Shown here: one piece after another, positions 15,201-52,826 of the stretch
Layout of the letters: each line of letters opens with the position of its first letter
Numbering within the stretch: the stretch's first letter is position 1
Virus record (IMG/VR): IMGVR_UViG_3300012983_000045
Coordinates: 7,875-71,874 of that record
Length of the DNA: 64,000 nucleotides
Reading direction: 5' to 3' (one strand)
Origin: a virus
Taxonomy: Duplodnaviria > Caudoviricetes
The notes under the pieces: model-generated
The model's input: the letters and a program-made list of their open reading frames with translations, nothing else
The model's database searches: none
Told to the model about the DNA's origin: nothing
Program-made: the position numbers and the translations under genes

Positions 15201-18200
15201 GCATTAATCTCTGCCCATTGGGATTCTGTAGCCTTATTCCCAGCATTTTGAATATTCTCAAAAATGTCACGAATTTTTTTCTCTTGTGCCTCAAGAGCTT
15301 TAATATCTGATTCAGGAAGTTTTACTCCAGCATTTTCAACATATTTCTTTTTTAAATTATCTAAATTCCCCCTCTACGTAATTAATTTAGCATTTGTTCT
15401 TTCTGCCTATTTTTGAGCATCCCTATCTCTTTTTTCATTTTCTTTAATTGCCTATACCCATGCATTATCATACTGCATTTCTCGTTTTTTTTGCAATTCT
15501 GCCTCAGTTAAACGGCCTGCTTCAATTCTTCTTTTTTTAAAATCCTGTACTTGTGGGCTATCTGGCAAATAGCCATTTTCTTTATAATATGTATCTAATT
15601 CTGTTTGTGCTTCGTGTAATTGGGTTCCCAATATCTACAATTTTTTCTACAAACCTTCTATTGGTTTCCCAAGGGATTCTGCGTTATATATATCCTCATA
15701 TGTTTTTATAATTTGTTGATCGAGAGATATAATTTCTTTTTCAAGTGCCTCAAATGAAGTGGTTATTGACTCGACTTCATATGATTGTCCTTCTTCGTCT
15801 TCTTTCATTCGTACTGTTCTAATTTGCTGCCTGCCTGTTCTTTCCTTATATTGACTAAGCTCGCCATCAACATCTGTTTGACTTATATAAACACCATTAC
15901 GCGGAGATTTATTTTTAGGCTCTTCTACCTTTTCTTGTTCTTTCTAAAGCGCCTACAATTCTTTGCGTAATTCTTCAAGCGCCTATTCCGCATTTATACC
16001 ATCATCCGAAATCTTATTCATGCAAGATTGCCAAATAATAGGAATTTGTTCAACCGTCACACCAAATTCTTCAAGAATTTCTTTTGAGCCTTTAACGAAT
16101 TTTGTAGTATTTTCCTATAATGGAGTAGTAAACTCGGTTCCAGATTGAATACCGTCAAAAGCTTCTCTTATTTTTTTGCCAATATTCCCAACATCAAGAT
16201 CATTTGCTTTTAATATTTCCGCTATAATCTCTTCAATGGTTGATTCGCCTTTGTGCATTACTTCCATTAATTGTTTCCAATTCTAAACTTCATTGTCGTC
16301 AACCACATTGAAAACTGTATAGAGTCCTGCTTTTTCGTTCATTTCACTTAGAATTTCTGGTAATTTTATTCCTCCATTATTTACCATTACATTAAACCCT
16401 AAGCTTTGCCTATCATTATTCCAATCGTCTCCAGATTCTTCTCTATATTCTGGTAATATTTGTATGTGTCTTCCTTTTAAATACTTCCTTATTCTTTGAG
16501 CATCTGTTTGATATTGATCATCCTTTGTTTCTTTTATTAAATTTTTATCATCTTCTAAAATGTTTTTTATAGAACTTAAATCTAAATCTTCTCCATTTTC
16601 TAATGTTTTAAACATCTCTTTAAACGAACCGGTTAATTTTTCTACAGTTTTTTGTGTAAGCCCTAATTTTTCTCCAATATCCTAAGCAAGCCGAGTAGCA
16701 GCATCGGAATATTTTTCAAGATTATCTTCCTCTTGTGAAACTGGAGTTTCATTAGATTTATATCTTTCTTCGACATTACGTCTTGCCTATTCCCACGCTT
16801 CTCGTTGCAGATTTTGTTCTGTTTCGTATCTTTCTTCTAATACAGGAATTGTTGCTTCAATTTCTGCGCGTTCTTCTTTTAGTTCTTCTATTCTTTCTCT
16901 ATATCCTCGCCTTTTTTCTTCAACCTATTTATCGAATTCTTCCCCTTTTGGTGTCATATCTTCGCCAAACAATCTAGAATAATCCTTATAAAACAATTTT
17001 AATTCTTGTTCGGCATTTTCTATACTGGTTGTACATCTTGTAATTATTTCATCTATTTCATTTATTCTATTTTCTGCCGCATCAAGGTTGTCTTCAACTA
17101 TCTATCCTTTATTAACATCATAAATTTTTTCAAATTCTTTTTGTATTTCAGCGCGTTTATTTTGCTCATCAATTATACCTTGAATTCGATCATCTTCCGA
17201 CTTGTCCCATACTTCTCCGGCAGCATAATTACGTTTTTCCAGCATGTCACTTTGCTTTTCAAGTTCGTCAGTAATATTAGCCTATAAAATGGACTCCTCT
17301 TTTAAATCATATATAACAGTTCCATACGTTGTATCAGCGTAACGTGTTCCCCTAGTATCTACGCCGCCATATCCAAGAGACTTCATGAATTGAGTTGAAA
17401 CACTATCTTTTCTATCTTCAAAGCTAGAATTTTCCATATAATTTTCTAGCTCGGACAATTTTGCCGCAAATTCATTTATATTCAATACAGATTTTCCAAA
17501 AACATCTTCAAATTGATTAAATAATTCAATAATAGAATACCTTCGCTCGCCTTGAGTATATCTGGTTAAATGCTATAAAAAATCATGTAATTTACCAGCC
17601 AAATCATCATTGTTTCGTGCATCAAAAAGATTGTCGTATTTTGATATATCAACACTTGTAAATGGAAGTTTTGAGTAATTATTACTATCCATTAATTTAT
17701 GTTTTGTTGCTGCATCTACAAAATAATGTCCAGTGCCAAAATATCCAGTTCCACGATTAGATCCATAAAATCTGCCATTTGTTTCCGCTTTATTCAATCT
17801 AGACACAATACCTGCATGATAAATAACATCATCAATCGCAGCTGCCGTTTTTTTTGTTTCTTCTCTTGCTTTTTTCATACTATCAGTTATTCTTGATCCA
17901 TCCATGGAACTTCCCATAGAATTTGTTAATGTAGGTAGAACAGTAGGAGTAGGATTACTCATAGTCGTTTTTGTATCAGTAACAATCCTTCCATCCGGTC
18001 GTTCTCTACTAACTGAATGATGTTGTTCTGTTTGCGTACCAACAGGCTTTTTAATTTCTGTTTCATCAGCCAATTCGCCTTTTACTTTAATTCGATAATC
18101 TCCAGAGTCTAAAGCTTCTTGAATTTGATTTGGTAATGATATTTCAGAATCTAAACCTATTTTTATTGGATATACATTTCCCTCGTCGATGGCTTCCTAT

Positions 18201-21130
18201 ACTTTCTCTTTTATTCCTCCATCTACGACTTCTTTACCAGATTTATTCATTGCACCAGATAGAGCCTCTGATAAATCTTGTGCAGCCTTTGCAACCTATT
18301 CCATCTTATCAAGCAATTCGCTTAAAAATGATGTTATTCCACCGTCCTCGGCTTCTTTAATTCCAAAACCATCTTTAAAAATCTTTTGTAGATTTTCAAA
18401 AGCATCAGTAAGGCTTTTTATATCCTATTCATAATCTTTTATATTACCAAGTTTGGCAATATAATCCATAAACCCAAGATCTTCTTCTGACTATTCGCTC
18501 TTTTTACCTATGCCATATAAATTTCTAATGTTCTTACGTAAAGTTGACATATCTCCTTTTGGAGAACCCGACCCTTTAAGATACTTATATACAGAATAAT
18601 AAGGACTTGTTTTCTATGCTTCTTTAACTAAACCTTTATTCTGTTCTTTCCATTCATCAAACGTTCCTTTAAATTTCTTAGCTTCTATGTCGCCTCGAAA
18701 ATTGTCCTATAACTATTTCCATACCTAATCATTTACTAACTCTTCTGTTGCAGTGGTAACATCCTTTAAAAACGACATAATAGAACGAATACGTTCCTCA
18801 ACATTGGTATATTGATTAACAACGCTAGATTTTGATAATGCCGCAACAACATCTTTTCCTGCATATTGTTCTCTAAGAGTCGAAGAATTTAACAGACCAA
18901 CCATAAATTGCTATGCGTCATTTATTAATGGATCTTGTTCTTTAAATATTGAAAGTACTTTATCATATGCCCTTTCATATCTCTCTGCTTGCTCTCTCCA
19001 ATAGTTTTCCTCTTCCTTTTTTTGTTTATTAGCACCGTTGGCGTCAACATAATAATTTGTTGGACTATTTGTAGCACGAGGCTTAGAAACCATTTCTCTA
19101 AGAGACTTCTGATTTTCACGCATTCTTTTTGTGGTGCCTTCACCAATAACACCAATTGATTTAGAGATATTTGTCAACGTAGAATTCAAATCTTCTAAAC
19201 TTTTTCTAAACCCCTAAACACTATCTACATTAAAAGCATTATCAATAATATTTCCCAAATCTCTAAACTGAGAGAGAAGAGAAGTAATGCCAGATTCATC
19301 ATCTATTTTCCCAAATGCATCAGAGATGTTATTAATCTGTGCAACAAGATCCTAGAGTAATTGAATTAAAACTGCGATTTCGTCAGTACCCCAAGATTCT
19401 CCTGGTTTAAAATTTAACGTCGCTTCACTTAATTGTTTATTAACATACTCTATAAGTTCGCCATATGTTTGGAGTTTATCATAATCATCAATTAAATAAT
19501 CAGTATAAGACTTTACACCATTGTCATCTTGATTATCAACATAGCTCGTGTATCGTTCAATATCATCTTCGATTTCTCTTTCTACATCTTGTTTTCTTCG
19601 AATTAATTGAGAGAGTACATCCTGTAAATGACTTATCCTATTTTCGGCATCACTATCAATGTTTTCAATATATGAATAATTCGCTTGATTATAGTCCCAA
19701 TCATCTTCTATATTCTTTTTTTTATATTTCTAATAAGCCCGACTTCTTATTTCTTCCACAGATTCATATGCTTTTCTCTGTCTCTCTACTGCTCTTTCTA
19801 TTCTTTCGGTTTCTTCTTCAAAGTCATCCGACAGATCATCATATATGTCATCACCAGAATTCCCACGCATCTCATTATTTATATCTTCTTGTTGTTTAAT
19901 TATAAATTCTTTCTGTTTTTGAAGTTTTTCGGCGAACTCTTTATATAGAGCATCAACATCTGCCGTATCCTCCTCGGCTCGTTTTTTATAATCAGATAAC
20001 CATGATTGAGTACCATATTCTTTAAAATCTTCATTCCCAAGAATTAAATCTTCCATTTGTTTTGATCTTTTTTCACGATGTTCTTTTGCAGTTCTTTCAT
20101 ATTCTTTTCTCTAATCCTCAATTTGTTTTCTAAAATTCTATATATAGTTATCTCTTTCAAACGAAGAGTCATAGACATTATTTAATATATCTCTAGATTC
20201 AGAAACCTAAGCTTTCGCAAGACCATTTTCTTTTGGTATCTCATCGGATAATATACGCAATTCATCCCTTAACTGGTTGGCTTCATTTCGTAATTGCTAC
20301 ATTCTTTCTATTTGACTATCAAAATAAGCATCGTTACCGCTACTGTCGAGTTCTTGTCCCATTACTTCAGTCATGGCTTCTTTTAATTCTTCTGCTCTTT
20401 TTTGTATTTCATTTAACCGCTTTTCTGTATTCTACCATGCCTATTCCGCTTCTCTTGCTTGTTGCTCTAGTTCTGCAGCTTCAATTATGCTCTTTTCCGC
20501 AGGATTCCAATGTTCATTAAAATATCTGCTTGCAGTGCCTCTGAGTTTATCATTTGCATCTATGGCCATCTATTTCTGTTTTGCTGATGTTAATTGGTTG
20601 TTTTTATCTGGAGCAAGATATCCGCTACTAATCGCCATCCCGGTTCTTAGAGACTCCTATAATCTACTAAACATATCAGAAATACGACCATCAATTTCTT
20701 TGCCAACTTTTTCATAATATTGACCAAGCTCATGGTAGTTTCTGAAAAAATTTTGAACTTCTCTGCTTGTTAGTTTTAAACCTTCGTTATTTAATTTTGA
20801 ATATGTAGATTGTAAAGAAGATTCAAGTTCTTTTACTCTGCTCTATATATCGGAACTATTAAATATGTCCTAATCAGAAATTCCAAATTCTATCTTTTTT
20901 CTTGATTTTTTATCTAATTTATTCTATGTTTTAATTATTTGTGCTGCAGCTTTTTCCATATCATCTGATACTTCTGTATAATTTTGATTTATTTCGTAAG
21001 TAGTGCTCTAATTTTGTAATTTCCCCTATGCTTCTGCAAGTTTATCTATTGCTCCAGTCAATTTCTCTATGCTAGAAACCGCATCTTCGATTCTTTTATT
21101 TCCGCTTCCATTGCTTATTATTTTCGACAT
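277..21130 (-). CDS. Giant tape measure protein, ~6,428 aa, join(21130..3799, 2231..277), read with TAG=Gln
   Basis: All 15 listed minus-strand fragments in this frame from 20056 to 4604 end in TAG. The four fragments below the intron share a second frame, reached by removing 3798..2232. The TP901-type tape-measure core (LDTQLTEMRKVS...AGNQVLQNPQMVGQSLRTISLRL) is at ~13400-12850. Real stop TAA at 279-277. Absence of TAA/TGA was spot-checked, not exhaustively verified. Confidence 0.85.
2232..3798 (-). mobile_element. Group I intron (1,567 nt) in the tape measure gene
   Basis: P1: exon AAGCGU pairs with GCGCUU with a U.G at the splice site. R element GTTCAACGACTA and S element GAAGATATAGTCT are present. 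Terminal G at 2232. Splicing gives in-frame KKA-Y-YDYNKTLK. Confidence 0.85.
2335..3549 (-). CDS. Intron-encoded homing endonuclease (Cys/Zn repeats plus Vsr/DUF559-like PD-(D/E)xK C-terminus), TAG-recoded, 404 aa
   Basis: ATG at 3549 after GGAGG. One frame through several TAGs joins track ORFs 3094..3345 and 2335..2799. C-terminal RFDFFL...IEFDGIYH motif. Sits between the R and S elements. Confidence 0.75.
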
Positions 21131-31551: not shown

Positions 31552-34006
31552 TTATAGTGCGATTATCTCTACATCTAGCTACACAGTGACTTCACCAGAC
31601 GTATTTTTTATTTTTAATATTTTACCTATATATGAATCATCCCCCAAGAATTTAAACTTGAGTTTATGAGGATCATCCATTTCTATATATTCCACAATTG
31701 CATTAGGTACTCGGACATTATCAATCCAAAGCGCCCAATATCCAGGCGCATAATCAGAAATATTGCCTTCTTCATCATAATAGGTAAGTGTAAATGTTTT
31801 TGCAGACCCGCCAATTTTAATCTATTGCTTACCAGAACAAGTAATTTTACCGGTAACCGTTGGTAATTCATCACTTATTGGGACGGCAGGGACAGGTGCA
31901 ACTTGTCCTTCCTTCCAATCTGCCCACCATGCAACAACATTCCCATTATTATCATAATCTGCTTTCAGAGTATGCTAATTAGCTAATTCTTGTGTACATG
32001 TATAAACAGCAATTCCTTTAGAATTGGAACGATTAATCTTGCTTATCTACCATACTCTTGGTTCGGTAAGAACATTTGCATCAATAACAAGATATGTATT
32101 ATAATAAAGATGTTCGGTGTCTCTGTTTAACGGAAGAGCAAATTTTGTTTGGTCTTCAGGCTATTGGAATTTATAATCAATCCAAAGTCCAGAATTGTTC
32201 TAAATGTTACTTTATCAGTTCGTTACTCTGACAAAGGAATAACTACGTTATCAAAATTATTCTTGTATTTTTCATATTTTCTTTTTAAATACATGTCAGC
32301 ATCCATATAAAGCCAATCAAGGAATTTTTTAACTTGTTGTGTACCACTAAAAGATAATACTTTAGTTACACCATTATGACACGATGCATCATAAATATTC
32401 CCACATGGAATACCCAATTCATTCCTTAAATATTCTTGCAAATCTTTACAAAAGGATTCCGTTGATGTAAATGTTACGAGTGGTTGAAATTTTCCATTCT
32501 TTGTATAATTAGGACATAGAGATCCATCTCCATCAAAGTATCCAAGTACAAAAAATTTCAAAAGACTTGCATCAATAAATTTCGGAAATTCCAAGATTAA
32601 ACTTTTATTTTTCTTAACTCCTTTTTTCTCAAGTTCTTCACTTATATGTTTGCTAAATATGCTTAATCTGTATTGATTTTGGTAATTATATCCAAAATCA
32701 TGTTTCTAACTATAGTCTAAATATTCTAATGGTCTTTCATACTGTAATTCATTTCTTATCCTGTCTAATATATATCCATCATTCTCTTCGAGCGATATTG
32801 AAACCGTCTGTTTGGGAGTGAAATTAGAGCCATCCGCATATAATAATCCTAAAATATATGCTTTGTTTTGAGTGTCAATTTCATCAAAATAATATTCATT
32901 TAATTTAAATTTACGTTTACCATTTCCAACTCTTTTTACTCCAAACTAATCCAATACCTTCGCTATTACTTTGTGTCCAACTTTAAATTCTTCTCCGATT
33001 TTTACAGTTGACATTCCACCATTATACATTTCAACTATTTTTTGTTTTTCATCATATGAAAAGTCTTTATATGTAAATAATTTTCCCATTGCTATTCCTC
33101 CTAAAAATAAACAATATATAATAAAGACAGTAATTTTCGTATTAGGAGTACGAAAAAAGGAGGCCAATCCCTGTCCTGTCTTAATTATCAGTAGTTATTC
33201 TTTCTTGCACTTTCGTACAAGAGCAGATCATATCAACACCATATCTTTCGACTTAGGTGGCTCCCTTTACCTCACTTGAGGACATGATCGTTGAACTTTA
33301 CCCTATTCGGGTCTTAGCTGCGGATTATCCAATGTAATAACTTTTTATAGCGTTTCACACTTAGGTATATTTCATCCTTTTGCTGTAGCATATTACCTCT
33401 AAGGAGTTCCCCGCAATTAAGGAACTTTCGACATAAGCTTTCACCTATGAAGCGCACAATCTACGAATTCTGACTTCTACTCACTCCAGGGAATTCATAA
33501 TACTTCCCATCTTTAATCCATCGGAACACATCATCACAACGAAGTACTTCCCAAGTAGGGAACTAATTTTCATCCCTGTCAGCAGTAGCAACAACCAACC
33601 ATCTACGATAAATGCCATCTTCTCCCTATAGCCATACATAAAGACCAACAGGATATCTGGCATTATATCTTTTACCAAACACTTCATCATAATAATCAAC
33701 TGCACATTCATGTCCAGGTCTGAACTAAATATGCATTGTTACTTCGTCCTTCTCATAAGTTTTTTTAGTATGAGCAATAAATTTTACATCTATTGGAGTT
33801 GGATTTGGATCTAACTCTGGATCAAATCCTTCCAATCTTAAACGATTTTCTGGCGTTGTATGATAATAATCAAAGAAGTATGCAACCTAATACTAAATGT
33901 CCTACGTAAATGTAGCATCCATAATTCTATCAGACTACATTTTTCTTGCTCGTCCGGGAACGCTTGTTCCATGCATGGTTTGAAAGTCTTTAAATGTGAT
34001 TGCCAT
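31552..34006 (-). CDS. Head-tail joining region protein, ~396 aa, join(34006..33463, 32198..31552), TAG-recoded
   Basis: Exon 1 ends ...GVSRSQNS-T and exon 2 starts AC-AAT-TCT-GGA, giving RSQNSYNSGLWIDYK, a motif I recall from homologs. The joined length 1,191 nt is divisible by 3. Confidence 0.65.
32199..33462 (-). mobile_element. Group I intron (~1,264 nt) carrying a LAGLIDADG gene in its 3' (P9) region
   Basis: P2 GAAA hairpin, TAATTGCGGGGAAC (P3/P4), AATCCGCAGC, R element GTTCAACGATCA, S element GATATGATCT, P9 GAAA hairpin. 3' boundary is ambiguous by 1 nt. Confidence 0.8.
32223..33089 (-). CDS. Intron-encoded double-motif LAGLIDADG homing endonuclease, TAG-recoded, 288 aa
   Basis: AYILGLLYADGS and FVLGYFDGDGS motifs; joins track ORFs 32946..33167 and 32223..32594 through TAGs; GGAGG RBS. 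Confidence 0.8.
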
Positions 34007-42178: not shown

Positions 42179-43948
42179 TTAAAACGAAGAAAATCGTCTA
42201 CCGGGTCTGATGGTTAAACGATTAACTAAATTATTATTATTTTGTTTTGGTTTTAATTTTAGCTCAAGCTAACATGCACACCAGTAATTATAAGCAATAG
42301 AAGAATAGCGGTCTTTTCTCATGCCAGCAATTTCTTTAACCTTTACATTCCCATTTTTTATTTCATGATCCAGTTTTATTAGTTCATATTCAGCCATTGT
42401 TGTCTAAACATATGGCATTTTTATATATGCCTGATCAGTAGAGGATAATTTAGAATAAGACCTTGATGGGTAATTCTTTTTTATCTCTTCTTCGCATTCA
42501 TTTTCTGAAATTAAAAAACTAATTTTCCCATTCTAGATGCCATTTCTTAATAGAATACATATCTCATTGTTAAAATTTGCTGTGGCTTTAACAGACCATA
42601 CAACTTTGTTAGCATCTCTAACTTTACAACGTAATGCCATGTCGTCATCATTGCAACAATATAACGCTTTATAGGTATCACCAGTCTCTGCATCGTACTA
42701 GTCTTTACATATATAATCGTATACGCCTAGTCCTATCCCATTACAGTCGAGAACCAAATCAGTACACTTATATTTATAGAAATACCTCATTACAATAATG
42801 CCTAATTCATCGGTTGTTAATCCTTCAAATGTTTCGCCGTAGACTATATTTGACTAATAAGTTATATCATCCATTTGAATGGCACTGTTGATGTACAAAG
42901 CAGATGCGTCATTCTTTTTCTTTTTTGTAGTCCCCATAAGGGCTACGTCTACGGACAATATTCGCTTTTCAGCGGGAGCTAAATCAGGGATCTTTATTTT
43001 GTCATTATAGAATTTTAATGGATAAAAAGCATTCTTTATTTTTCTTCTTTTATTTATGTCATCAAACTTAAATAAAGAATTTTCGTTTTCTCCATACCAA
43101 AGACATTCCATTTCTGTCTAAAATGTTAAGAAATTAAAATCTTGTTCGCTAAACTCATCTTCAATCTATGAACGCATTAATAATCCTTCTCGAATTGAAA
43201 CCTAATAACTTAATCCAGCTATAAAATATTTCTTTGTATCATCAAGAAAGTTTGCAGTATATGATCTCGCCTTTTCCCATGACCAGTGAGATTTTAACCA
43301 ACAAGATGACATATATATTTCTTTATTTCGTTCTTGTAAATGAGCATATTCTGGTCTGTTTAAATATCCAGGATGCCTCGGATCACTCAAGAATTTCTTT
43401 AAAACGGTATCTACAATTTCCTTTTCAACCATCCTAAACTCATCCACGATTATAATCGTTGCACGAGCAGATCTCGCATTCTATGAACTTGTACGCGTCT
43501 TAATATATGAGCCATTCCAAAAATAAATACTTGCATCATTCTAACCAATATTACAAGATTTTATTTCAGAGCGAAGCATCGCAGATTGAGGCATTAATAT
43601 GTCCTATACTTTTAGTAACACTTCATTCGCCTATTTCAATGTTCCGGCGGTTACTACAATCCATGTCTTAGGCCAAAGGATACATCTTACGCAACAAAAA
43701 ATCGCTGTCAAAAATGTCTTACCTTGCCCACGGGCAGCAAGATACATTACAAAATTATAATGTACCATAGCCCAAAGCAAAATTTTCTAAAACCATTTTA
43801 ATTTAAAATTATTTTCAGTAAGAAGTACTTCGCTGACATATCTATGTGGATTCTGTCTATAATAACCAGCTTTCCACGCAACCACTTCCATGGTCTTTCT
43901 AGCCTTTTCAGCAGATAATTCCTAAATTGATTTTCTCTTCTCAGCCAT
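42179..43948 (-). CDS. Terminase large subunit (YonF-like), TAG-recoded, 589 aa
   Basis: AARGQGKT Walker A, IIVDEFR Walker B, LSVDVALMG nuclease Asp, KDRYSSIAY C-terminal motif; only TAG interruptions seen; ends TAA at 42181-42179. Confidence 0.9.
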
Positions 43949-45012
43949 TATATCTCCTCATTCTTGCCAAAGATTTGTTCAAAAATAGCTTCAGAATCCG
44001 TGTCTTCGTCATATTGTGGCTGAGTCACTGTATATTTCTTCATATATTTTTCATATAATCTTGAAAATCCATTTTTCAATCCCATCATCTTTGCAAGATG
44101 TCCTTTGAAAAATGTATCTACAAGAGTAATCATATGATCAGGATCTCGGAATTCTTCGTCGGGTTCTGGAATTGGCTTTCCACCATCCCACTCATCTTCC
44201 CATTTTTCTATTAATTGACCAAATGTTTTTGCTTCGGTCAGAGCATTGGAATTTGTTTGAGAGGGTTTAATCTGCAAAGATGTCATTAAATCCTGTAAAG
44301 TCTTTAAATCATCCTTGGTATCTTTACCGGATTTTTGTTTTTTGTCTATATTTAACTCTGTGTGACAAATGTTTTTATACAACACCTCTTGCGCTTTATT
44401 CTCACAAGGATACCTTTTAATCCAATCTTGATATTCATTCTCCAACCAAATCAAATCAGTAGGAGAGTAGTCTTTACCAAATCTCCTTTTTGCTTGTTTT
44501 AACATGCGGGAATTTTCGTTGATTTGTTCATCATCTTCCTCAAGCGATTCGTCAAAAATCGAATCTGCCCAAGTTAATCCTCGATATTGAGGTAGAGACT
44601 TGACACACGTAATGAGATAAGCATATGCAGTCTGACGATTTTTCTCACCGACTTGTTCAATTGCACTATTCATAACAGATTTATATAAATCGTCTATAAA
44701 TGGTAAATCCATCATTTGAAATACTTTTTTTGTTTTCTCTCTATTGTCGATATAACTGTTTGTAGCTTTATCATAATCACAAGCATCATTAATTAAACAT
44801 TTTTTACAGATTGGAAACAATCCACTTGCGTACCTTTTATCAGAATAAAATGAATCGGCACTTAAAAACTCGTTGCACTTATGGCAATAGCAAAGTTTCC
44901 CATCTAATATCCGATTGTAATCTTTAGCAAGTGAATTATATGCTTGTCTAACATTTGCTACACCAGCTTTCTTGACTTCATCTTCGGTCAATGCAGCTTT
45001 AAGCCGAGCCAT
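43948..45012 (-). CDS. Zn-finger protein upstream of terminase (possible small terminase, YonG-like position)
   Basis: Intact 354-aa ORF with CxxC...CKKC; its stop overlaps the terminase start. Confidence 0.6.
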   Translation of the reverse strand: MARLKAALTEDEVKKAGVANVRQAYNSLAKDYNRILDGKLCYCHKCNEFLSADSFYSDKRYASGLFPICKKCLINDACDYDKATNSYIDNREKTKKVFQMMDLPFIDDLYKSVMNSAIEQVGEKNRQTAYAYLITCVKSLPQYRGLTWADSIFDESLEEDDEQINENSRMLKQAKRRFGKDYSPTDLIWLENEYQDWIKRYPCENKAQEVLYKNICHTELNIDKKQKSGKDTKDDLKTLQDLMTSLQIKPSQTNSNALTEAKTFGQLIEKWEDEWDGGKPIPEPDEEFRDPDHMITLVDTFFKGHLAKMMGLKNGFSRLYEKYMKKYTVTQPQYDEDTDSEAIFEQIFGKNEEI

Positions 45013-45040
45013 ATAGTCACCATCCTTTTACTCATACAAA

Positions 45041-46291
45041 TTAGGCACTCTTCATTTCCTGAAGAATGCCCTCTAAATATTCCACATATTCATAATTTAT
45101 ATTAATTGACAACTGATTTTCTTCAAACCATTTATCAAATTCTCCACAATCGATTCTATATATAAAATCTAAAAAATCATACGGTGTAAATTTAGTGTAT
45201 CCGTATTCATCATGAAATAACTTATGGATATCCTTCTGAACACAAGCACCCAAGCCATAAATATTATGTAATAAATGAGTCTCCATTCTTAAAGTAGAAA
45301 ACTCATCGGTACTATAATTCATAACTTTATCTTTAACGGCGATCCCTGTATTATCAAAAACCTCATCTACAATATCTCTAAAAGGCACAGTATGATGTAT
45401 ATTATCAAAATCACCACCAGATATTACACAATGATATCCACAAAACTCCATAGATTCTTTCTGCCAATCTTTAGTCTCGGAACGAAGTTCGGTATAGGTT
45501 TGATTTATACCACCTTTCCATCTACCGTTTTCTTCTCCATTTAATGGATAAATATGACGCGGATTCTTGTCTCCGGCCCATTTTCCCCTCATTCTTTCAC
45601 TCATTTGCATACATTGCTCTTTTGAACGTTTCTTTCCCAGCCACCAAGACGTATGAGTTTTATAATACTCTTTTCGAACCTCTGATAAATGTTGTTTTTG
45701 TTTATCTGACATATGTCTTCCACGATTACCGTCTCCAATTCTTTTATTTCTAATATCCAACATACGACGCACTTCGTCATAAGTTTTATTTCCTTGTATT
45801 CCAAGATAACTAGCTCTACATTCGATGGCTCGAATTGTTCTGCCTTGAAGAAAATTATCTCTCAATTCTTCTCCTGTATAGTCGTTATAATACCGACGCA
45901 TTATTTCATCCTCTTCTTTTGTCCATGGAATATTCGGTTCGTAATCCTCTGGTAAAAAATTCTTAAATTTGGGATTACATTCTCTACAAATATGTCTCAG
46001 TCCATCTTTACAAGTTTTATCTACTGGGAAAAACCTATAAGAATTAGGTAATGATCTACCACATTGTCTGCAAACTCTTTCGCCGTCATATTCTATTTTG
46101 CCAGTACTAAACCTTGCTTTTAATTGATTATTCTTTTCTTTATTTTTCTGCGATTCACATTTTTTACATAAACTACTATGACCGTCTCGATTATTTTTAC
46201 TAAAATATTTATCAGTATTTGGAAAAGTTTCTCCGCAGCATGTACATGTTCTAAATTCAGCATCTTTTGGAGTTCCATGTGTATAACCCAT
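45041..46291 (-). CDS. HNH-type homing endonuclease with Zn fingers and NUMOD3-like repeats
   Basis: CxxC repeats, GRHMSDKQKQHLSE, C-terminal HCVISG...IHHTVPF...HKLFH; likely start at the ATG at 46291. Confidence 0.7.
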   Translation of the reverse strand: MGYTHGTPKDAEFRTCTCCGETFPNTDKYFSKNNRDGHSSLCKKCESQKNKEKNNQLKARFSTGKIEYDGERVCRQCGRSLPNSYRFFPVDKTCKDGLRHICRECNPKFKNFLPEDYEPNIPWTKEEDEIMRRYYNDYTGEELRDNFLQGRTIRAIECRASYLGIQGNKTYDEVRRMLDIRNKRIGDGNRGRHMSDKQKQHLSEVRKEYYKTHTSWWLGKKRSKEQCMQMSERMRGKWAGDKNPRHIYPLNGEENGRWKGGINQTYTELRSETKDWQKESMEFCGYHCVISGGDFDNIHHTVPFRDIVDEVFDNTGIAVKDKVMNYSTDEFSTLRMETHLLHNIYGLGACVQKDIHKLFHDEYGYTKFTPYDFLDFIYRIDCGEFDKWFEENQLSININYEYVEYLEGILQEMKSA

Positions 46292-46499
46292 GATTTCACC
46301 TGTCTTTCTCACCCGCAAACAACAAAAAAAGAACGGGAGAGTGCCGCAGGTGTAAAGCACTCACACCAAGGTAGCTACTCCTCGATGTTCCCGTTCAAAG
46401 CAAAAAAAATAAGCACTCCGAAGAGTGTCATAAATCATATTTCAGGAATCGAACCAGAAGCAGAAGAGCAGAAGTTCCTCCGCGCACCAACATAGATAA

Positions 46500-46610
46500 T
46501 TATTTAACAGCAATTACAACCCAGAGCATTAACGACATAAGAGCCGTACTGCCAAGAATGGCAATAACCTCTTGGGCTACATCTTTGGTGGTTTCCTTGA
46601 GAAAATCCAT
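46500..46610 (-). CDS. Small membrane peptide, 36 aa
   Basis: MDFLKETTKDVAQEVIAILGSTALMSLMLWVVIAVK; GGAGGTG RBS. Confidence 0.45.
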   Translation of the reverse strand: MDFLKETTKDVAQEVIAILGSTALMSLMLWVVIAVK

Positions 46611-46693
46611 GTCAATCACCTCCTATATAATAAACAGCGTATAACCATTAACTTAGCTGTGTCATGCTTTTGCACAAGTTTTATGGGCATCGA

Positions 46694-46918
46694 TTATCTT
46701 AAAACATCATTTATGATGTCTGCCGTTTTGCATAATTCCTCTCTGGAAGTTATATCAAATCCAACATCTTTTATAAGCGCATGAGCAAGATACATACAGA
46801 AATGCTGAAGAAATTCATCTTGCTCATCTGTTGTTTCTTCAGCAGAAGTATTAATTACATTCATTACTTCATTATATTTATCTACACATTCTCTTGTGTT
46901 TTTATAAAAATCTTTCAT
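46694..46918 (-). CDS. Hypothetical protein
   Basis: Intact 74-aa ORF with AAAGGA RBS. Confidence 0.55.
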   Translation of the reverse strand: MKDFYKNTRECVDKYNEVMNVINTSAEETTDEQDEFLQHFCMYLAHALIKDVGFDITSREELCKTADIINDVLR

Positions 46919-46932
46919 AAATATTTTCCTTT

Positions 46933-47802
46933 TTAATACAAATAATCTAAATCGTCTATTTCTAGATTATCAGCGTCTATTTGATTCATATAGTCATATA
47001 CATCAAAAAAGTCAGTGATTCCTAATTCTTTGCGCTTTCTATTCACATATTCCTCCAACTGTTCCGGTGTATTATTCAATTTTCCATATTCATAATGAAA
47101 CGATCCAGAGATACAAGGATTATGATGATTTCTACATAAACATGCACCATTTGTAACATCAAATCTAGTTTCGGGTCTGGAAGCGAATGGATAAATGTGA
47201 TGAAATTCAATATCCTATGTAGAACCACACACTATACATGTGAAGTTATCCTTTTCGGCTACACCTTTTTTCCAATTTTGATATAACCCACTGCTCCGTA
47301 ATCTTTTAATTATTGATGTTTTGCTTTCCTCTTCTCCAAATTCATTTATTTCTTTAATATGCCTATCTTTTCCTAGGCAAGACGTTCTTAACCCAGATTT
47401 AAGTTTTCCCGCAAGAACAGAAACTTTTTGTCCACAATTGTATTCACATACCCAATACGTATTTTTCTTTTCTTTTGATTTCGCTTCATCAAAATATAAA
47501 GCCGTTAAATTACCAAATTCTCTTCCGGTTAAATCTTCTCTTGTTTGCCCACCATGCCCACCAGTGCATTTAAGACATTGTATAATATGATTTGGGTTTT
47601 GAGTTATCTAATCTATTCTTCTATTTTCACTTTCATGAATGCCATTCGGACATTTAAAATAAAATTTTGTTTTTGTTCCAGATGCAACTTCTGATGGTAA
47701 CAAATCATTCTTTTCATAATCCCAAAGTTCAAGAATATCATGACGGTTATTTGTAACACACCATTCTTCAAATGTCTATTTACAAGTATATCTATTTCCC
47801 AT
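46933..47802 (-). CDS. HNH endonuclease with Zn-ribbon domain, TAG-recoded, 289 aa
   Basis: ATG at 47802 after GGAGG; three TAGs; CIVCG...EFHHIYPF...NGACLC..HH; absent from the track. Confidence 0.7.
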
Positions 47803-47910
47803 ATTGTTTACCTCCTACAGTAAATTCTCCCACTATATATAAACGCAACTGGGGAGGTAGGAGACTCCCCAATATAATGGTGGCCAAACCATTATACTTT
47901 TGCGTTATAG

Positions 47911-48001
47911 CAAGCCCGGTGCGATTCGAACGCACATCAGCGGCTTCAACGCGCTTACAGATTTAGAGTCTGCTGTTTTCAATCCATTAAACTACGGGCC
48001 T
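47911..48001 (-). tRNA. Amber-suppressor tRNA (anticodon CUA), class II with long variable arm
   Basis: Cloverleaf: acceptor AGGCCCG/CGGGCTT, G73, D stem GTTT/AAAC, anticodon arm GCAGA-CT-CTA-AA-TCTGT, 21-nt variable region, T arm GTGCG-TTCGAAT-CGCAC; CCA not encoded. Confidence 0.9.
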
Positions 48002-48035
48002 ATAATAAAGGCGCAACCGAAGCCACGCCAATAAA

Positions 48036-48514
48036 TCAATCTTTCTTATCCGTTGTAAACATCACACCGTCTTCTTCGCCGATTACAGCACGGGCAACGT
48101 CTTCCATCAATGTGGAAACAAGACCATGCGGATCATGCAGATTGTCGTTCCAGAACTGGACGACTTCTGGTTTGAACACAACATAATTAATCGGATTCAC
48201 CATAATTCCCTCAATGGTAGTTGCATAAGAAAATGCCGGATTGCCTTCGAATGCCGACGAATTATATCAACTTTCTTAGGCTCAGTATTTGCCGGGATTA
48301 CTTCAATAAACACAGAAACATTTCCAAAATCTTTTTGTACCGGAAGAATCTCATCAAGAGCAGCAGCTTTAATTTCATTTTCTACATACAGCTTAATGTG
48401 AAGTTCGTCCTCGTCAAATGCTACCTTAATATCAGGGTCCGCACCAAACAGTGCCTCGACCTGTCTATAGTACGTAATCCATGGTGGAGCTAATTTTACT
48501 TCTTTGTTTTCCAT
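48036..48514 (-). pseudogene. Conserved phage hypothetical gene with an apparent 1-nt frameshift near 48254
   Basis: After KVDIIR the protein-like text continues in another frame (AFEGNPAFSYATTIEG...FTTDKKD*) to TGA at 48038-48036. Could be an assembly error. Confidence 0.5.
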
Positions 48515-48553
48515 AACCTTTTACCTCATTTTTAAAAATAGGAGGGGAGCCAA

Positions 48554-49171
48554 TTACTCCTCTACATAAACAAAGTGTGTACCGATGTTTGGTACTACGT
48601 TAGAGATCTTTCTATATTTGGTGATTGCTTTTGCGACTTCATCAGTTAAAGGAATAGTTCCTCTATATGAGAACTGACGAATCCCATTCTCATCACATTC
48701 ACAATAACAAAATCCTTTACGGTCATCATCCCACTCAATAAAAGATTTTAATTTAAGTTCAGTGTCTTCCTCTGGTTCTTCTTCATAATCAGGATCAAAA
48801 GTAAACAATACTGCTTTAAAATTCTGCACAAAATCATTTCTTTTTGCATCAATAACAAATTTAGAATTCACAGTATCCTCAACATAACACTTACAATCAA
48901 CCGCAATATAGAGACCTGTATTAGTATTAAACGCCTGTTCAAGATACAATTTTTCTTCTTTTCCATCAATGGTTAAGATATATTCCTTATTATATGCGAA
49001 TTTGTCAACCTCCAAGAGGAACGGTTCATAATCACCATTTAGAATAAAATCCAAAATAACCTCTTGAAGCGTTTCATTATCTGCAATCAGAGCAACTTCA
49101 CCATCTTCGGCGATAACATCCATCAACTCTGATTCTAATTCATACACTTCATTATAATAAATCATATGCAT
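48554..49171 (-). CDS. Acidic hypothetical protein
   Basis: Intact 205-aa ORF with RBS. Confidence 0.7.
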   Translation of the reverse strand: MHMIYYNEVYELESELMDVIAEDGEVALIADNETLQEVILDFILNGDYEPFLLEVDKFAYNKEYILTIDGKEEKLYLEQAFNTNTGLYIAVDCKCYVEDTVNSKFVIDAKRNDFVQNFKAVLFTFDPDYEEEPEEDTELKLKSFIEWDDDRKGFCYCECDENGIRQFSYRGTIPLTDEVAKAITKYRKISNVVPNIGTHFVYVEE

Positions 49172-49183
49172 TCCTTTTCTTCC

Positions 49184-50383
49184 TTAAAACTTTATATCAT
49201 ATATACAATCAAGACCATCCTTATTAGTTACGACACAAACGGTTTGCTCCGCACCCCCAAGCAATCTATTATCAGCAGCATACGTATCCATACCGGATAA
49301 ACATCCGGTCTGCACAACTTTAATCCCAGATTGTGTATCATACTTATTTGTGTGTTTATGTCCAGTCAAAACAATTGATGGTTTATCTCCAAACATACGC
49401 TGCATAGTTTCTCCGAGTGTGGCAAATGGATCTTTGTCGCCATGGACGGCCATTATTAATCTTGCTCCAATTCTGAAAATTACGGTACCATGATGGTATC
49501 TGTTTTCTTCAAGATGAACACAATCATCATTCTGAAATTTCCCCTTCAAGAAAGGAATAATAAGATTATCCAAATTTTCATGAGAAATTTCCTCATTTTT
49601 ATTTGGGTTAATTCTACTATGATTTCCGGGAGCAACGAATACACTCACATGATTAAATTTGGTACGTAATTGCTCAATAAAATAACAAATGTGTTCCATT
49701 ACCATAAGAAATTGATCAATAACATCCTGATTTGCCTCTAGCCTAAGAGCATTATGAATTAAGCCAGAAATTGCCTCACTGATAACAACATATGCACCAT
49801 TTGCTACATGGCGTTCTTTAATCTCAAAGATCTTATCCAAATACTTATCCAGCCTCTCCTTGAGAACATCTTCGTTATACTCATTCCACCAATTCTTTGT
49901 AACAATACCTCCATGAATATCATAAAGTGGGATAAGAAGAGCAGACTCACTTTTAGGATTATCATGTTGTTTCGGGGTATATGTTAAAGGAATTTTGCTT
50001 GTACTTTCAGAAATAGTTCGTTGAATTTGTTCAAGAAAAGACTCTTTACGAGCCTCCTCTCTAAGAAGTCTACGGTACTCATTCCGTTCATCGCGTACTT
50101 TCACCTTTTCTTTTTCTAGTTCACGACGAATCTCAATTAACTCTTCCGCTGTACCGTTATCAGCATTGCAATTAAACTCATTCCTAAACTGCTTTAATAA
50201 ACTATATTTTTTTCTATATGCAGATTCTGTCCAATACTCAGATGGATCACGTAACTCCTTATTTAATATATCTGCAAGTTCTGGCCATGTCATGTCTAAC
50301 AAACCAGATTCTTTTGCATCGCCAAGACGGATTATATATTTCAATTCAGATTCACCCGGAAGTCGGGCGGCAGAGAAGGACAT
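49184..50383 (-). CDS. Calcineurin-like metallophosphoesterase with N-terminal coiled coil (YonJ-like)
   Basis: LYDIHGG (DxH), APGNHSR (GNH), AVHGD, TGHKH motifs. Confidence 0.8.
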   Translation of the reverse strand: MSFSAARLPGESELKYIIRLGDAKESGLLDMTWPELADILNKELRDPSEYWTESAYRKKYSLLKQFRNEFNCNADNGTAEELIEIRRELEKEKVKVRDERNEYRRLLREEARKESFLEQIQRTISESTSKIPLTYTPKQHDNPKSESALLIPLYDIHGGIVTKNWWNEYNEDVLKERLDKYLDKIFEIKERHVANGAYVVISEAISGLIHNALRLEANQDVIDQFLMVMEHICYFIEQLRTKFNHVSVFVAPGNHSRINPNKNEEISHENLDNLIIPFLKGKFQNDDCVHLEENRYHHGTVIFRIGARLIMAVHGDKDPFATLGETMQRMFGDKPSIVLTGHKHTNKYDTQSGIKVVQTGCLSGMDTYAADNRLLGGAEQTVCVVTNKDGLDCIYDIKF

Positions 50384-50384
50384 A

Positions 50385-50630
50385 TTATTCCTCCTCCAAC
50401 TCTTTTGTTAAATCCTCTTCTGTCTTCATCGCAATAGATAACTCAATCGTCATACCCTTGAACGGAGAAAGGCATTTATCTACGGAAATTGTTGTCTCCT
50501 CTTTATTGGAGTTTGTATAATAAATTTCCTTACCATCCGTGGAGAGATCTCCCTTAATTGCAAATCTTTTATTAATCTTCTCATTATAAGTATAATTCTT
50601 TGCCATAATCCTTTTCCCCCTATTAATCAT
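50385..50630 (-). CDS. YonK-like small protein
   Basis: Intact ORF; size, composition and position before the YonJ-like gene match SPbeta gene order. Confidence 0.5.
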   Translation of the reverse strand: MINRGKRIMAKNYTYNEKINKRFAIKGDLSTDGKEIYYTNSNKEETTISVDKCLSPFKGMTIELSIAMKTEEDLTKELEEE

Positions 50631-51241
50631 AAAACACTATCTAAATCTATATCTACACCAATAATCTTATCAACAACACCAAGTTCCTTTGCCCGATCAG
50701 CATACATATATAACTCAGTATCATAGTATTGGTCGTAAAATTCTTCCGTCATCTTAGTGCGAGAGAGTACAAATTCCTTTGTTCTCTGGTCTCCACTTTC
50801 AAAGAATGCAACAGTATCTTTTACTTTTTTTGCACTATTGGAAATGCTAACACTCCCGTCATGCTGTAAAAATACAGAGTTCTTGAAAGCAATCCTGTCA
50901 TGACAAGCAAGAAATACATGATAACAAGCACTTGCCACCAATGATAATCCAATACCAATAACTGGTGTTTTACTTGCAACAATAACATCAACAACATTCT
51001 GAGAAACAAATGTATCTCCACCAACACTGCTCATATAAATCTTAATTGGTTTCCTAGCTTCTACCGGAAGATTGATATCTTCCTTATTCCATTTAAGAAT
51101 GTAAAGAACAATGTCTTCCACCATATTGTCACTAACTTCATCATTAAAAACAAGAATTCTATCTTCAAGATATTCTCTATACAATTCCTCATATGCGTTC
51201 GCTTGGTTATTTAATCCTGTAGGTATAATAAATCCATCCAT
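50627..51241 (-). CDS. clpP: ClpP-family serine protease
   Basis: DRILVF, IKIYMSSVGG, VASA (Ser), LQHDG (His), MYADRAKELGVVDKI. Confidence 0.85.
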   Translation of the reverse strand: MDGFIIPTGLNNQANAYEELYREYLEDRILVFNDEVSDNMVEDIVLYILKWNKEDINLPVEARKPIKIYMSSVGGDTFVSQNVVDVIVASKTPVIGIGLSLVASACYHVFLACHDRIAFKNSVFLQHDGSVSISNSAKKVKDTVAFFESGDQRTKEFVLSRTKMTEEFYDQYYDTELYMYADRAKELGVVDKIIGVDIDLDSVL

Positions 51242-52752: not shown

Positions 52753-52826
52753 TTGCAGGAACCAGATTTGAACTGGTGACCTCTGGCCCATGAAGCCAGC
52801 GAGCTTCCGAACTGCTCCATCCTGCG
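52753..52826 (-). tRNA. tRNA-Met(CAU), initiator-type body with altered anticodon arm
   Basis: CGCAGGA/TCCTGCA acceptor with C1:A72 mismatch, A11:U24, anticodon arm CTGGC-TT-CAT-GG-GCCAG, T arm ACCAG-TTCAAAT-CTGGT. Confidence 0.85.

Follow-up and report, generated by a model that had tools for sequence, protein, structure and literature searches.

A long-armed amber suppressor tRNA from an SPbeta-like phage and the glutamine-anticodon-like loop of its extra arm

How might a tRNA that reads the amber codon be loaded with glutamine when it carries a long variable arm? The question is raised by a gene in a 64-kb window, by which we mean the whole stretch of DNA that was analysed, taken from a viral contig of 71,874 bp (IMG/VR record IMGVR_UViG_3300012983_000045; CheckV completeness 39%). 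The gene, which is 91 nt long, lies on the minus strand (47911..48001) and lacks an encoded CCA, specifies an amber suppressor with the anticodon CUA, referred to here as tRNA(CUA). Comparison with related sequences makes it fairly probable, in our judgement, that this suppressor has a body of the tRNA-Trp type, would be charged by the glutaminyl-tRNA synthetase (GlnRS) of the host and has an extra arm that would imitate the anticodon loop of tRNA-Gln. Suppressor tRNAs of phages and the recoding of TAG to Gln are already known; in the literature searched we found no account of a long arm with a loop resembling a Gln anticodon.

The extra arm and its loop

The tRNA(CUA) gene is called by ARAGORN and by the Rfam model RF00005 (55.8 bits against a gathering threshold of 29 bits, E-value 2.6e-9), and it scores 79.4 bits with R1, a covariance model of its own family of which it is the sole member in the contig. 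The 3' strand of the acceptor stem (47912..47918) pairs with 48001..47995 to give A1:U72, G2.U71, G3:C70, C4:G69, C5:G68, C6:G67 and G7:C66, and the discriminator is G73 (47911). The D stem consists of four Watson-Crick pairs (GUUU/AAAC) around a 10-nt loop, the T arm is standard (stem GUGCG/CGCAC, loop UUCGAAU) and the acceptor/T geometry is the canonical 7/5. In the anticodon arm a 5-bp stem (GCAGA/UCUGU) carries the loop CUCUAAA, which contains the anticodon on the minus strand at 47964..47966, where the plus strand reads TAG. The variable region spans 21 nt (47956..47936) and folds as a hairpin on the minus strand at 47939..47955, which is seen in individual folds, in alignment A1 and in covariation; its stem is AGCGC/GC(C)GCU with one bulged C, and its 6-nt loop is GUUGAA. 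A preliminary description, drawn from this DNA alone, had named the CUA arm, the stem-forming 21-nt variable region, A1:U72, G2.U71, G3:C70 and G73, and ARAGORN, Rfam and the cloverleaf agree with it at every one of these positions. The minimum-free-energy (MFE) z-score of the tRNA, -0.89, is unremarkable, as is usual for tRNAs, and uninformative; the reality of the tRNA and of its arm is instead supported by the covariance models and by covariation in 22 relatives.

ARAGORN labels the gene tRNA-Pyl, a label that follows the anticodon only. Genuine tRNA-Pyl has a 3-nt variable loop, a 6-bp anticodon stem and a small D loop, with pylS/pylBCD alongside, and we rejected this assignment on the 21-nt variable region, the 5-bp anticodon stem and the 10-nt D loop. 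The 7/5 geometry likewise rules out tRNA-Sec and allo-tRNA, for which acceptor/T-stem geometries of 8/5, 9/4, 8/4 or 9/3 are described (PMC5389517).

The relatives are 22 distinct long-arm CUA tRNAs, gathered from terminase-linked loci and two IMG/VR pattern scans, aligned as A1 and found mostly on phage contigs of 100-200 kb. (Loci of relatives and of scan matches carry L numbers; G001, G002 and G003 are complete TAG-recoded relatives of 161-202 kb.) The shared cloverleaf has 94.8% of its cells paired, as against 36-50% when the partners are slid, and the three inner pairs of the extra arm all show compensatory changes (U:A/G:C, C:G/G:C). The loop of this arm follows the pattern Y-C/U-U-G-A-R, with UGA invariant in the 22 sequences, and every member has CUG or UUG, the anticodons of tRNA-Gln, followed by A. 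These loops (CUCUGAA, UUCUGAG, UGCUGAG, CUUUGAA, UUUUGAG, GUUUGAU, GUCUGAU) sit on four different stems, UCC/GGA, GCC/GGC, GGG/CCC and GC/GC. Among 36 ordinary long-arm class II tRNAs of the same loci, taken as a control, YUGA occurs in the arm of three and in a predicted hairpin loop of none. On this comparative evidence we regard the 21-nt arm as a selected, covarying hairpin with a Gln-anticodon loop.

The same rule emerged from unbiased scans that were defined by the anticodon arm and the T loop only, with the variable arm left free. At least 94 distinct CUA tRNAs were found; among the matches listed, 63 are class I and 31 have a variable region of at least 13 nt. Of these 31 long-arm matches, 24 have a weak or mismatched 1:72 pair, and their arms show YUGA (21 cases) or YUG (three), while the other seven, with G1:C72 and Ser- or Tyr-like bodies, have no such hairpin. 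A corresponding scan for opal suppressors returned 72 distinct tRNA(UCA), made up of 19 class I, 15 Sec-like and 38 long-arm tRNAs with G73. All 38 of the last group present CCA, the anticodon of tRNA-Trp, in a hairpin loop that is mostly of 7 nt (GUCCAAA, CUCCAAA), and their bodies are Trp-like; none of the 15 Sec-like tRNAs does so. Reading frames lengthen when TGA is taken as sense, clearly so in L135, L155, L159 and L160. Homologues of a 392-aa open reading frame (ORF) of L135 have mixed residues at its six TGA sites; in a single case TGA coincides with the W of IPWNK, a motif that is repeated within the ORF. TGA-to-Trp is a reassignment reported for phages that differ from the code of their host (10.1101/2021.08.26.457843). 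Judged by these patterns, the arm triplet corresponds to the amino acid that the reassigned stop is expected to encode, with the qualification that the reading of TGA in the opal group is not confirmed by homology.

Glutamine at TAG and how the tRNA may be charged

The meaning of TAG was read from the large terminase gene, which is yonF-like, lies on the minus strand (42179..43948) and has 14 in-frame TAG codons. The terminase was translated with X at TAG, and because some database homologues are already translated with TAG as Q, the comparison was restricted to 31 loci without an in-frame TAG in the terminase, whose codons were read directly. Across these standard-code relatives the 14 sites hold CAA or CAG in 321 of 402 cells (80%), compared with 2.9% Gln at other aligned sites; the same 402 cells contain Ser twice and neither Trp nor Tyr. 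The 120 best-matching homologues in the database show Q without exception in six of the 14 TAG columns, and 119 of them show it in two more. More than half of the Gln positions of the window terminase are written as TAG (14, against eight as CAA or CAG). On conservation, then, TAG is Gln in this phage, and the premise of the preliminary description is borne out.

Gln identity is described as residing in 1:72, 3:70, G73, 10:25, U35 and G36, with loss of U35 and G36 lowering binding and catalysis by up to 10^5-fold (PMC9976931). The window tRNA has the weak pair A1:U72, G73, G3:C70 and G10:C25, and 2:71 is G.U, not G:C; its decoding anticodon has U35, but position 36 is A, not G, and U-G followed by A is found in the loop of the extra arm instead. 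The variable region of 21 nt also sets it apart from tRNA-Gln, in which this loop is of the class I type, 4-5 nt long. Across the family, pair 1:72 is A:U in seven members, U:A in five, G.U in one and mismatched in nine, and never G:C; 2:71 is G:C or G.U, and 19 of the 22 have G73. By these counts the acceptor signature of the family is that of glutamine identity. There are precedents for such a match in PMC9976931: a tRNA-Trp amber suppressor is charged with Gln by GlnRS; a long-armed amber tRNA-Ser switches to Gln after two base-pair changes in the acceptor (Rogers and Soll, via PMC9976931); and Gln-type pairs at 1:72 and 3:70 are enough to make such a tRNA-Ser a substrate of GlnRS. The preliminary description had proposed a Tyr- or Ser-derived scaffold re-tuned for Gln. 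A suppressor that reads TAG as Gln, has a long arm and ends in a GlnRS-type acceptor (weak 1:72, G73, G3:C70, with G10 and U35) is what we also find; the Tyr or Ser origin is not supported, as set out below.

These observations suggest the following sequence of events. tRNA(CUA) would be transcribed with, or just after, the early genes, which use the standard code, and ribosomes would then use it to translate the many UAG codons inside the frames of late (virion) genes as glutamine. The tRNA may be a natural counterpart of Escherichia coli su+7, with a tRNA-Trp-type body that reads through CUA and a Gln-type acceptor end. Into its variable region a mini-hairpin would have been inserted, whose loop, UUG or CUG followed by A, would imitate the anticodon loop of tRNA-Gln; most likely the arm supplies the G36-containing Gln anticodon that CUA lacks. 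An enzyme of the host glutamine pathway, probably GlnRS, would thereby accept the tRNA efficiently and specifically. More tentatively, and at somewhat less than even chances, the jobs of the anticodon may be divided between two arms, with CUA decoding and the mini-arm showing UUG or CUG (CCA in the opal suppressors) to the host synthetase as an "identity decoy". Such a decoy may involve an exchange of the two tandem arms in the stacking position below the D stem, and it would be a way of matching a tRNA to its synthetase that is undescribed for any natural tRNA.

Several observations weigh against charging through an imitated anticodon loop on a Trp-type body. The loop in the window, GUUGAA, has 6 nt, and its three nearest relatives have 7 (GUUUGAU or GUCUGAU), from which we conclude that the window tRNA and the L004 copy have lost one loop nucleotide and changed the last. 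The window loop keeps U-U-G-A, and with it the UUG anticodon of tRNA-Gln, but not the 7-nt geometry of an anticodon loop, and is an imperfect mimic; either the shortening is tolerated by whatever reads the loop, or this lineage is losing the mimic. At position 38 the mimic loops have A, G or U, as against C or U in phage tRNA-Gln loops. Class I CUA suppressors are found in the same phage group (L040) and beside long-arm ones (L072), so the arm is not obligatory. A canonical class II variable arm falls short of the anticodon-binding domain of a synthetase bound at the acceptor, and to act as a mimic it would need the two tandem arms to stack in another way, or the enzyme to bind in a second mode. 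If the host had no GlnRS, charging would need to pass through glutamyl-tRNA synthetase (GluRS) and GatCAB. Finally, the similarity signal for a Trp origin, described below, is modest: in a nearest-neighbour control the isotype was recovered for 129 of 200 tRNAs.

With regard to the host, 75 of the 81 Lachnospiraceae that were sampled have GlnRS, among them a metagenome-assembled genome (MAG) that contains the terminase of a relative, a figure that is indicative only. Two phage-sized contigs were binned in MAGs, one of Lachnospiraceae and one of Absconditabacterales, and a terminase relative occurs in three of 301 Lachnospiraceae. No Glu/GlnRS catalytic core is encoded in the contig or in G001, G002 or G003.

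The main rival to imitation of the anticodon loop sees in the arm only an anti-determinant or a structural add-on, for example one that blocks tryptophanyl-tRNA synthetase (TrpRS) or a nuclease, with GlnRS using the acceptor end and U35 and the loop being inherited and not read. TrpRS approaches the tRNA from the side of the variable loop, and the Trp-like body fits such a role; the shortened loop of the window suggests that exact loop geometry is dispensable, and class I suppressors work without the arm (L040). GlnRS also tolerates a long arm, to judge from the amber switch of tRNA-Ser (PMC9976931). This explanation nevertheless leaves unaccounted for the Gln-anticodon triplet on four different stems in the CUA tRNAs, and Trp-type UCA suppressors, which should have no need to exclude TrpRS, still carry an arm with CCA. 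We consider it unlikely.

Imitation of the Gln anticodon also has to be set against ambiguous or non-Gln decoding, in which the arm and G73 would lead to charging by seryl-tRNA synthetase (SerRS) or another enzyme and UAG would mean Ser or a mixture of Ser, Gln and Trp. A Trp-like body could keep some recognition by TrpRS, as su+7 does. G73 plus a long arm are determinants for SerRS (PMC9976931). The TAG codons, however, stand at columns that are invariantly Q in homologues, and at these sites standard-code relatives have Ser in two of 402 cells and Trp or Tyr in none, and with more than half of the terminase Gln positions written as TAG, substantial misreading would be costly. In addition, both the arm (3-5 bp with a 7-nt loop) and the D arm are unlike those of phage tRNA-Ser genes. 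The ambiguous Ser/Tyr decoding raised in the preliminary description is unsupported by these conservation data; minor mischarging may remain, but ambiguous or non-Gln decoding as the meaning of UAG strikes us as quite improbable.

The body of the tRNA

The bodies of the suppressors, with the variable region and the anticodon loop removed, were compared with those of 200 ordinary tRNAs of the same phage loci. The isotype nearest to the family is tRNA-Trp(CCA), with a mean top-3 similarity of 0.655; Ser is the runner-up (0.603), Tyr is near the bottom (0.532), and Ser and Leu do no better than Met or Asn. Trp is the top isotype for 14 of the 22 members. The window tRNA itself has its best body match with Trp (0.714), and Tyr, Ser and Leu lie mid-range at 0.603-0.625, Tyr and Ser at 0.603 each. 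In their acceptor and D arms, some members come close to duplicating a phage tRNA-Trp, as L088 does with the Trp gene of L095.

Gene order points in the same direction. In all relatives ClpP and YonJ are followed by small ORFs, then by a tRNA slot that lies 1.2-1.4 kb after YonJ, and then by YonG and terminase. In the standard-code L001, L012, L017 and L018 the slot holds tRNA-Trp(CCA), and in the recoded window, L004 and L011 it holds the long-arm CUA tRNA. Taken together, the comparisons suggest a class I body of the phage tRNA-Trp type; the signal is moderate and counts as support rather than proof.

Class II tRNAs for Ser, Leu and Tyr have a 3-bp D stem, a non-Watson-Crick 13:22 pair and either A73 (Tyr, Leu) or G1:C72 with G73 (Ser). 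Of these traits and the long stemmed arm, the window tRNA has the arm; the 3-bp D stem, A73 and G1:C72 are absent, and its body is nearer to that of Trp than to those of Ser, Leu or Tyr. Neither its acceptor nor its D-arm sequence recurs in the Tyr, Ser and Leu tRNAs of the relatives L017-L019. Its anticodon arm was described as Tyr-like, and it does match that of tRNA-Tyr except at position 34, but it is not evidence of descent, because unrelated class I CUA tRNAs (L083, L087) carry an identical stretch of 17 nt; the sharing is in keeping with convergence on a favourable setting for an anticodon that ends in A36.

A class II scaffold of Tyr or Ser descent, like that of supF or supD, with an acceptor end re-tuned for GlnRS would explain the long structured arm, has a precedent in the conversion of an amber tRNA-Ser into a Gln acceptor by acceptor-stem changes (PMC9976931) and has a parallel in the genuine class II-type CUA tRNAs with G1:C72 of other phages (L038, L378, L381, L384), but we hold it to be very improbable given the nearer Trp body, the tRNA-Trp slot, the four-pair D stem, the lack of G1:C72 or A73, the sharing of the anticodon arm with class I tRNAs and arm loops that obey the Gln-anticodon rule, unlike those of Ser, Leu and Tyr arms.

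Known suppressors offer a close likeness for a Trp-type body charged with Gln. The suppressor su+7 (supU; PMC9976931) has a Trp-type class I body, A1:U72, G73 and the anticodon CUA and inserts Gln at UAG, all of which it would share with the window suppressor, which occupies the slot of its relatives' tRNA-Trp. It differs in being a laboratory point mutant (CCA to CUA) with a 5-nt variable loop; the phage tRNA adds the 21-nt hairpin, its family often has a mismatched 1:72 pair, and it is the dedicated decoder of a recoded genome. The derivatives of supD that acceptor-stem changes switched to Gln identity are engineered and have a true class II body in which the arm is a serine determinant, whereas the body here is class I and the arm loop resembles a Gln anticodon.

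The nematode V-arm tRNA (nev-tRNA) is a class II tRNA with a non-cognate anticodon. The window tRNA resembles nev-tRNA, and allo-tRNA (PMC5389517), in being a natural tRNA with a long arm and an anticodon outside the standard class I and class II assignments. In both of those the arm or body dictates Leu or Ser whatever the anticodon, whereas conservation here points to Gln; from allo-tRNA it also differs in its 7/5 geometry, which in allo-tRNA is 8/4 or 9/3.

Genomic setting and other suppressors

The genes of the contig are SPbeta-like (yonF-type terminase, YonG, YonJ, YonD, YonB, YomW, ClpP, PhoH) and all lie on the minus strand. The terminase is 44% identical to yonF and less than 60% identical to any GenBank phage record, and the nearest named relatives are SPbeta-like. 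Upstream of tRNA(CUA), the frames of 48.2-64 kb are nearly free of TAG; downstream of it TAG is the only interrupting stop, the late genes truly end at TAA or TGA, and in-frame TAG occurs 14 times in the terminase and four times in the portal gene. The TAG-free early genes next to the tRNA (48197..51241, minus strand), ClpP, a YonJ-like gene and two small ORFs, define the conserved tRNA slot. Between them and the tRNA, a terminator-like hairpin with a U-run (48010..48029, minus strand) closes the block of standard-code early genes and immediately precedes the tRNA; it is a consensus match only, with eight pairs, five of them G-C, and the tail TTTATTAT. The first gene downstream of the tRNA (46933..47892, minus strand), which is HNH endonuclease-like, has five in-frame TAG codons. 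tRNA(CUA) is in this way placed at the early/late boundary, just after the terminator-like hairpin and 18 nt before the first TAG-bearing gene.

An identical copy of the tRNA is present in L004. At the protein level, the early module of that locus, which comprises ClpP, YonJ and two small ORFs besides the tRNA, matches that of the window with 94-100% identity, whereas its HNH, YonG and terminase genes are only 66-72% identical to the corresponding ones (42179-47892), which indicates a recombination junction at or just after the tRNA and accounts for the identical tRNA by mosaicism. A blastn search of GenBank phages with tRNA(CUA) gave no match, and a scan of JGI metagenomes for the subfamily of the window returned only two sequences, both already in IMG/VR.

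A second tRNA gene, with the anticodon CAU (called as tRNA-Met; of Met, fMet or Ile2 type), is located among the standard-code early genes (52753-52826, minus strand), and a CAU tRNA is found at the matching place in L004 and L012. A single frame of 5777 codons (3797-21130, minus strand) with 125 in-frame TAG can be read through with TAG as Q and is probably the tape measure gene. Two group I introns had been proposed at 2232-3798 and 32199-33462, but Rfam at its gathering threshold found none anywhere in the window.

No second CUA suppressor was found in the 71.9-kb contig, a 39% fragment, by ARAGORN or by the family model with filters off, or in the window by Rfam. A conventional Gln-type CUA tRNA elsewhere in the genome, which the preliminary description had raised as another possible decoder, was looked for and not found in that fragment or in the three complete recoded relatives, G001, G002 and G003. 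G002 has a single CUA tRNA, which is long-armed and has the same acceptor stem as that of the window. In G003 the long-arm CUA tRNA is split by a group I intron within the anticodon loop (RF00028, 50.5 bits; L212, G003:87200-87560), with the exon junction between U35 and A36, and in G001 the 3' exon of a long-arm CUA tRNA, the only exon seen, lies behind an intron-like end (L213, G001:164689-164757). Both genes were missed by ARAGORN and by the Rfam tRNA model. We grouped L104:468-760 with these intron-interrupted suppressors.

Other arrangements also occur. A TAG-recoded relative of the window, L040, has a class I CUA tRNA, alone on a short contig. Some phages of 100-165 kb (L072:355-521, also L082 and L092) have two CUA tRNAs 6 nt apart, a long-arm one with the loop UUCUGAG and a 73-nt class I tRNA with U1:A72 and A73. 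CUA tRNAs with G1:C72 and long arms that are Ser-like (G73) or Tyr-like (A73), without a Gln-type loop, are found at L038:4061-4147, L378, L381, L384, L318 and L368; in L038 the terminase is free of in-frame TAG. Such tRNAs may represent other reassignments or pre-adaptation.

The code 15 phages described so far (crAss-like, Lak, Agate, phAss-1 and others) have their own CUA tRNA, use TAG as sense mainly in late or structural genes and keep the standard code in early genes; Gln was assigned by homology, with confirmation by mass spectrometry in crAss-like phages, and in the absence of a phage synthetase charging by the host is assumed (10.1101/2021.08.26.457843; PMC9523058; PMC10607447). The phage of the window is like them in its own CUA tRNA, in its late genes with TAG as Gln and in its standard-code early genes; it is SPbeta-like, and a long variable arm or a second anticodon-like loop is unmentioned in those reports. 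We found no description of a Gln-anticodon-like arm in the literature on phage recoding, of which our coverage was incomplete, so that one may have been published.

How host enzymes load the stop-codon readers of recoded phages is a stated open question, and suppressor tRNAs are undetected in most such phages (Borges et al., preprint, 10.1101/2021.08.26.457843). Long arms and group I introns may be among the reasons why standard tRNA finders miss them. That the arm triplet tracks the assigned amino acid brings the question of charging within reach of a direct test on a few transcripts with a single synthetase. If the identity decoy is real, stop-codon reassignment in large phages would rely on such an arm. 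The design also provides a model from nature for building suppressor tRNAs that work efficiently. Annotators should not take a long arm on a CUA tRNA as a sign of Ser, Tyr or Pyl identity.

Further unusual tRNA-like elements were seen in the related phages. At L060:1468-1607 (about 42.0 kb in G002) a tRNA-Gln(UUG)-like gene has an insert of about 67 nt in its anticodon loop, and the insert itself scores as a tRNA (Rfam, 36.8 bits). Odd tRNA-like elements of 91-123 nt in G003 (L214, G003:29322-29444) and G001 (L063 and L064, G001:12891-12981 and 14050-14141) start with ..GUAGUUUAA, the D arm of the window suppressor, and either lack an anticodon arm that could be recognised or enclose a further tRNA-like piece. 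Long variable arms are also found on isotypes that are normally class I, namely tRNA-His(GUG) with 15 nt, tRNA-Cys(GCA) with 15 nt and tRNA-Pro(CGG) with 25 nt (L113, L087, L088). Lastly, the Rfam RNAs "cow-rumen-4" and "skipping-rope" lie beside tRNA arrays of related large phages (L096:7110-7174; L110:6612-6679), which fits a rumen or gut origin of the group.

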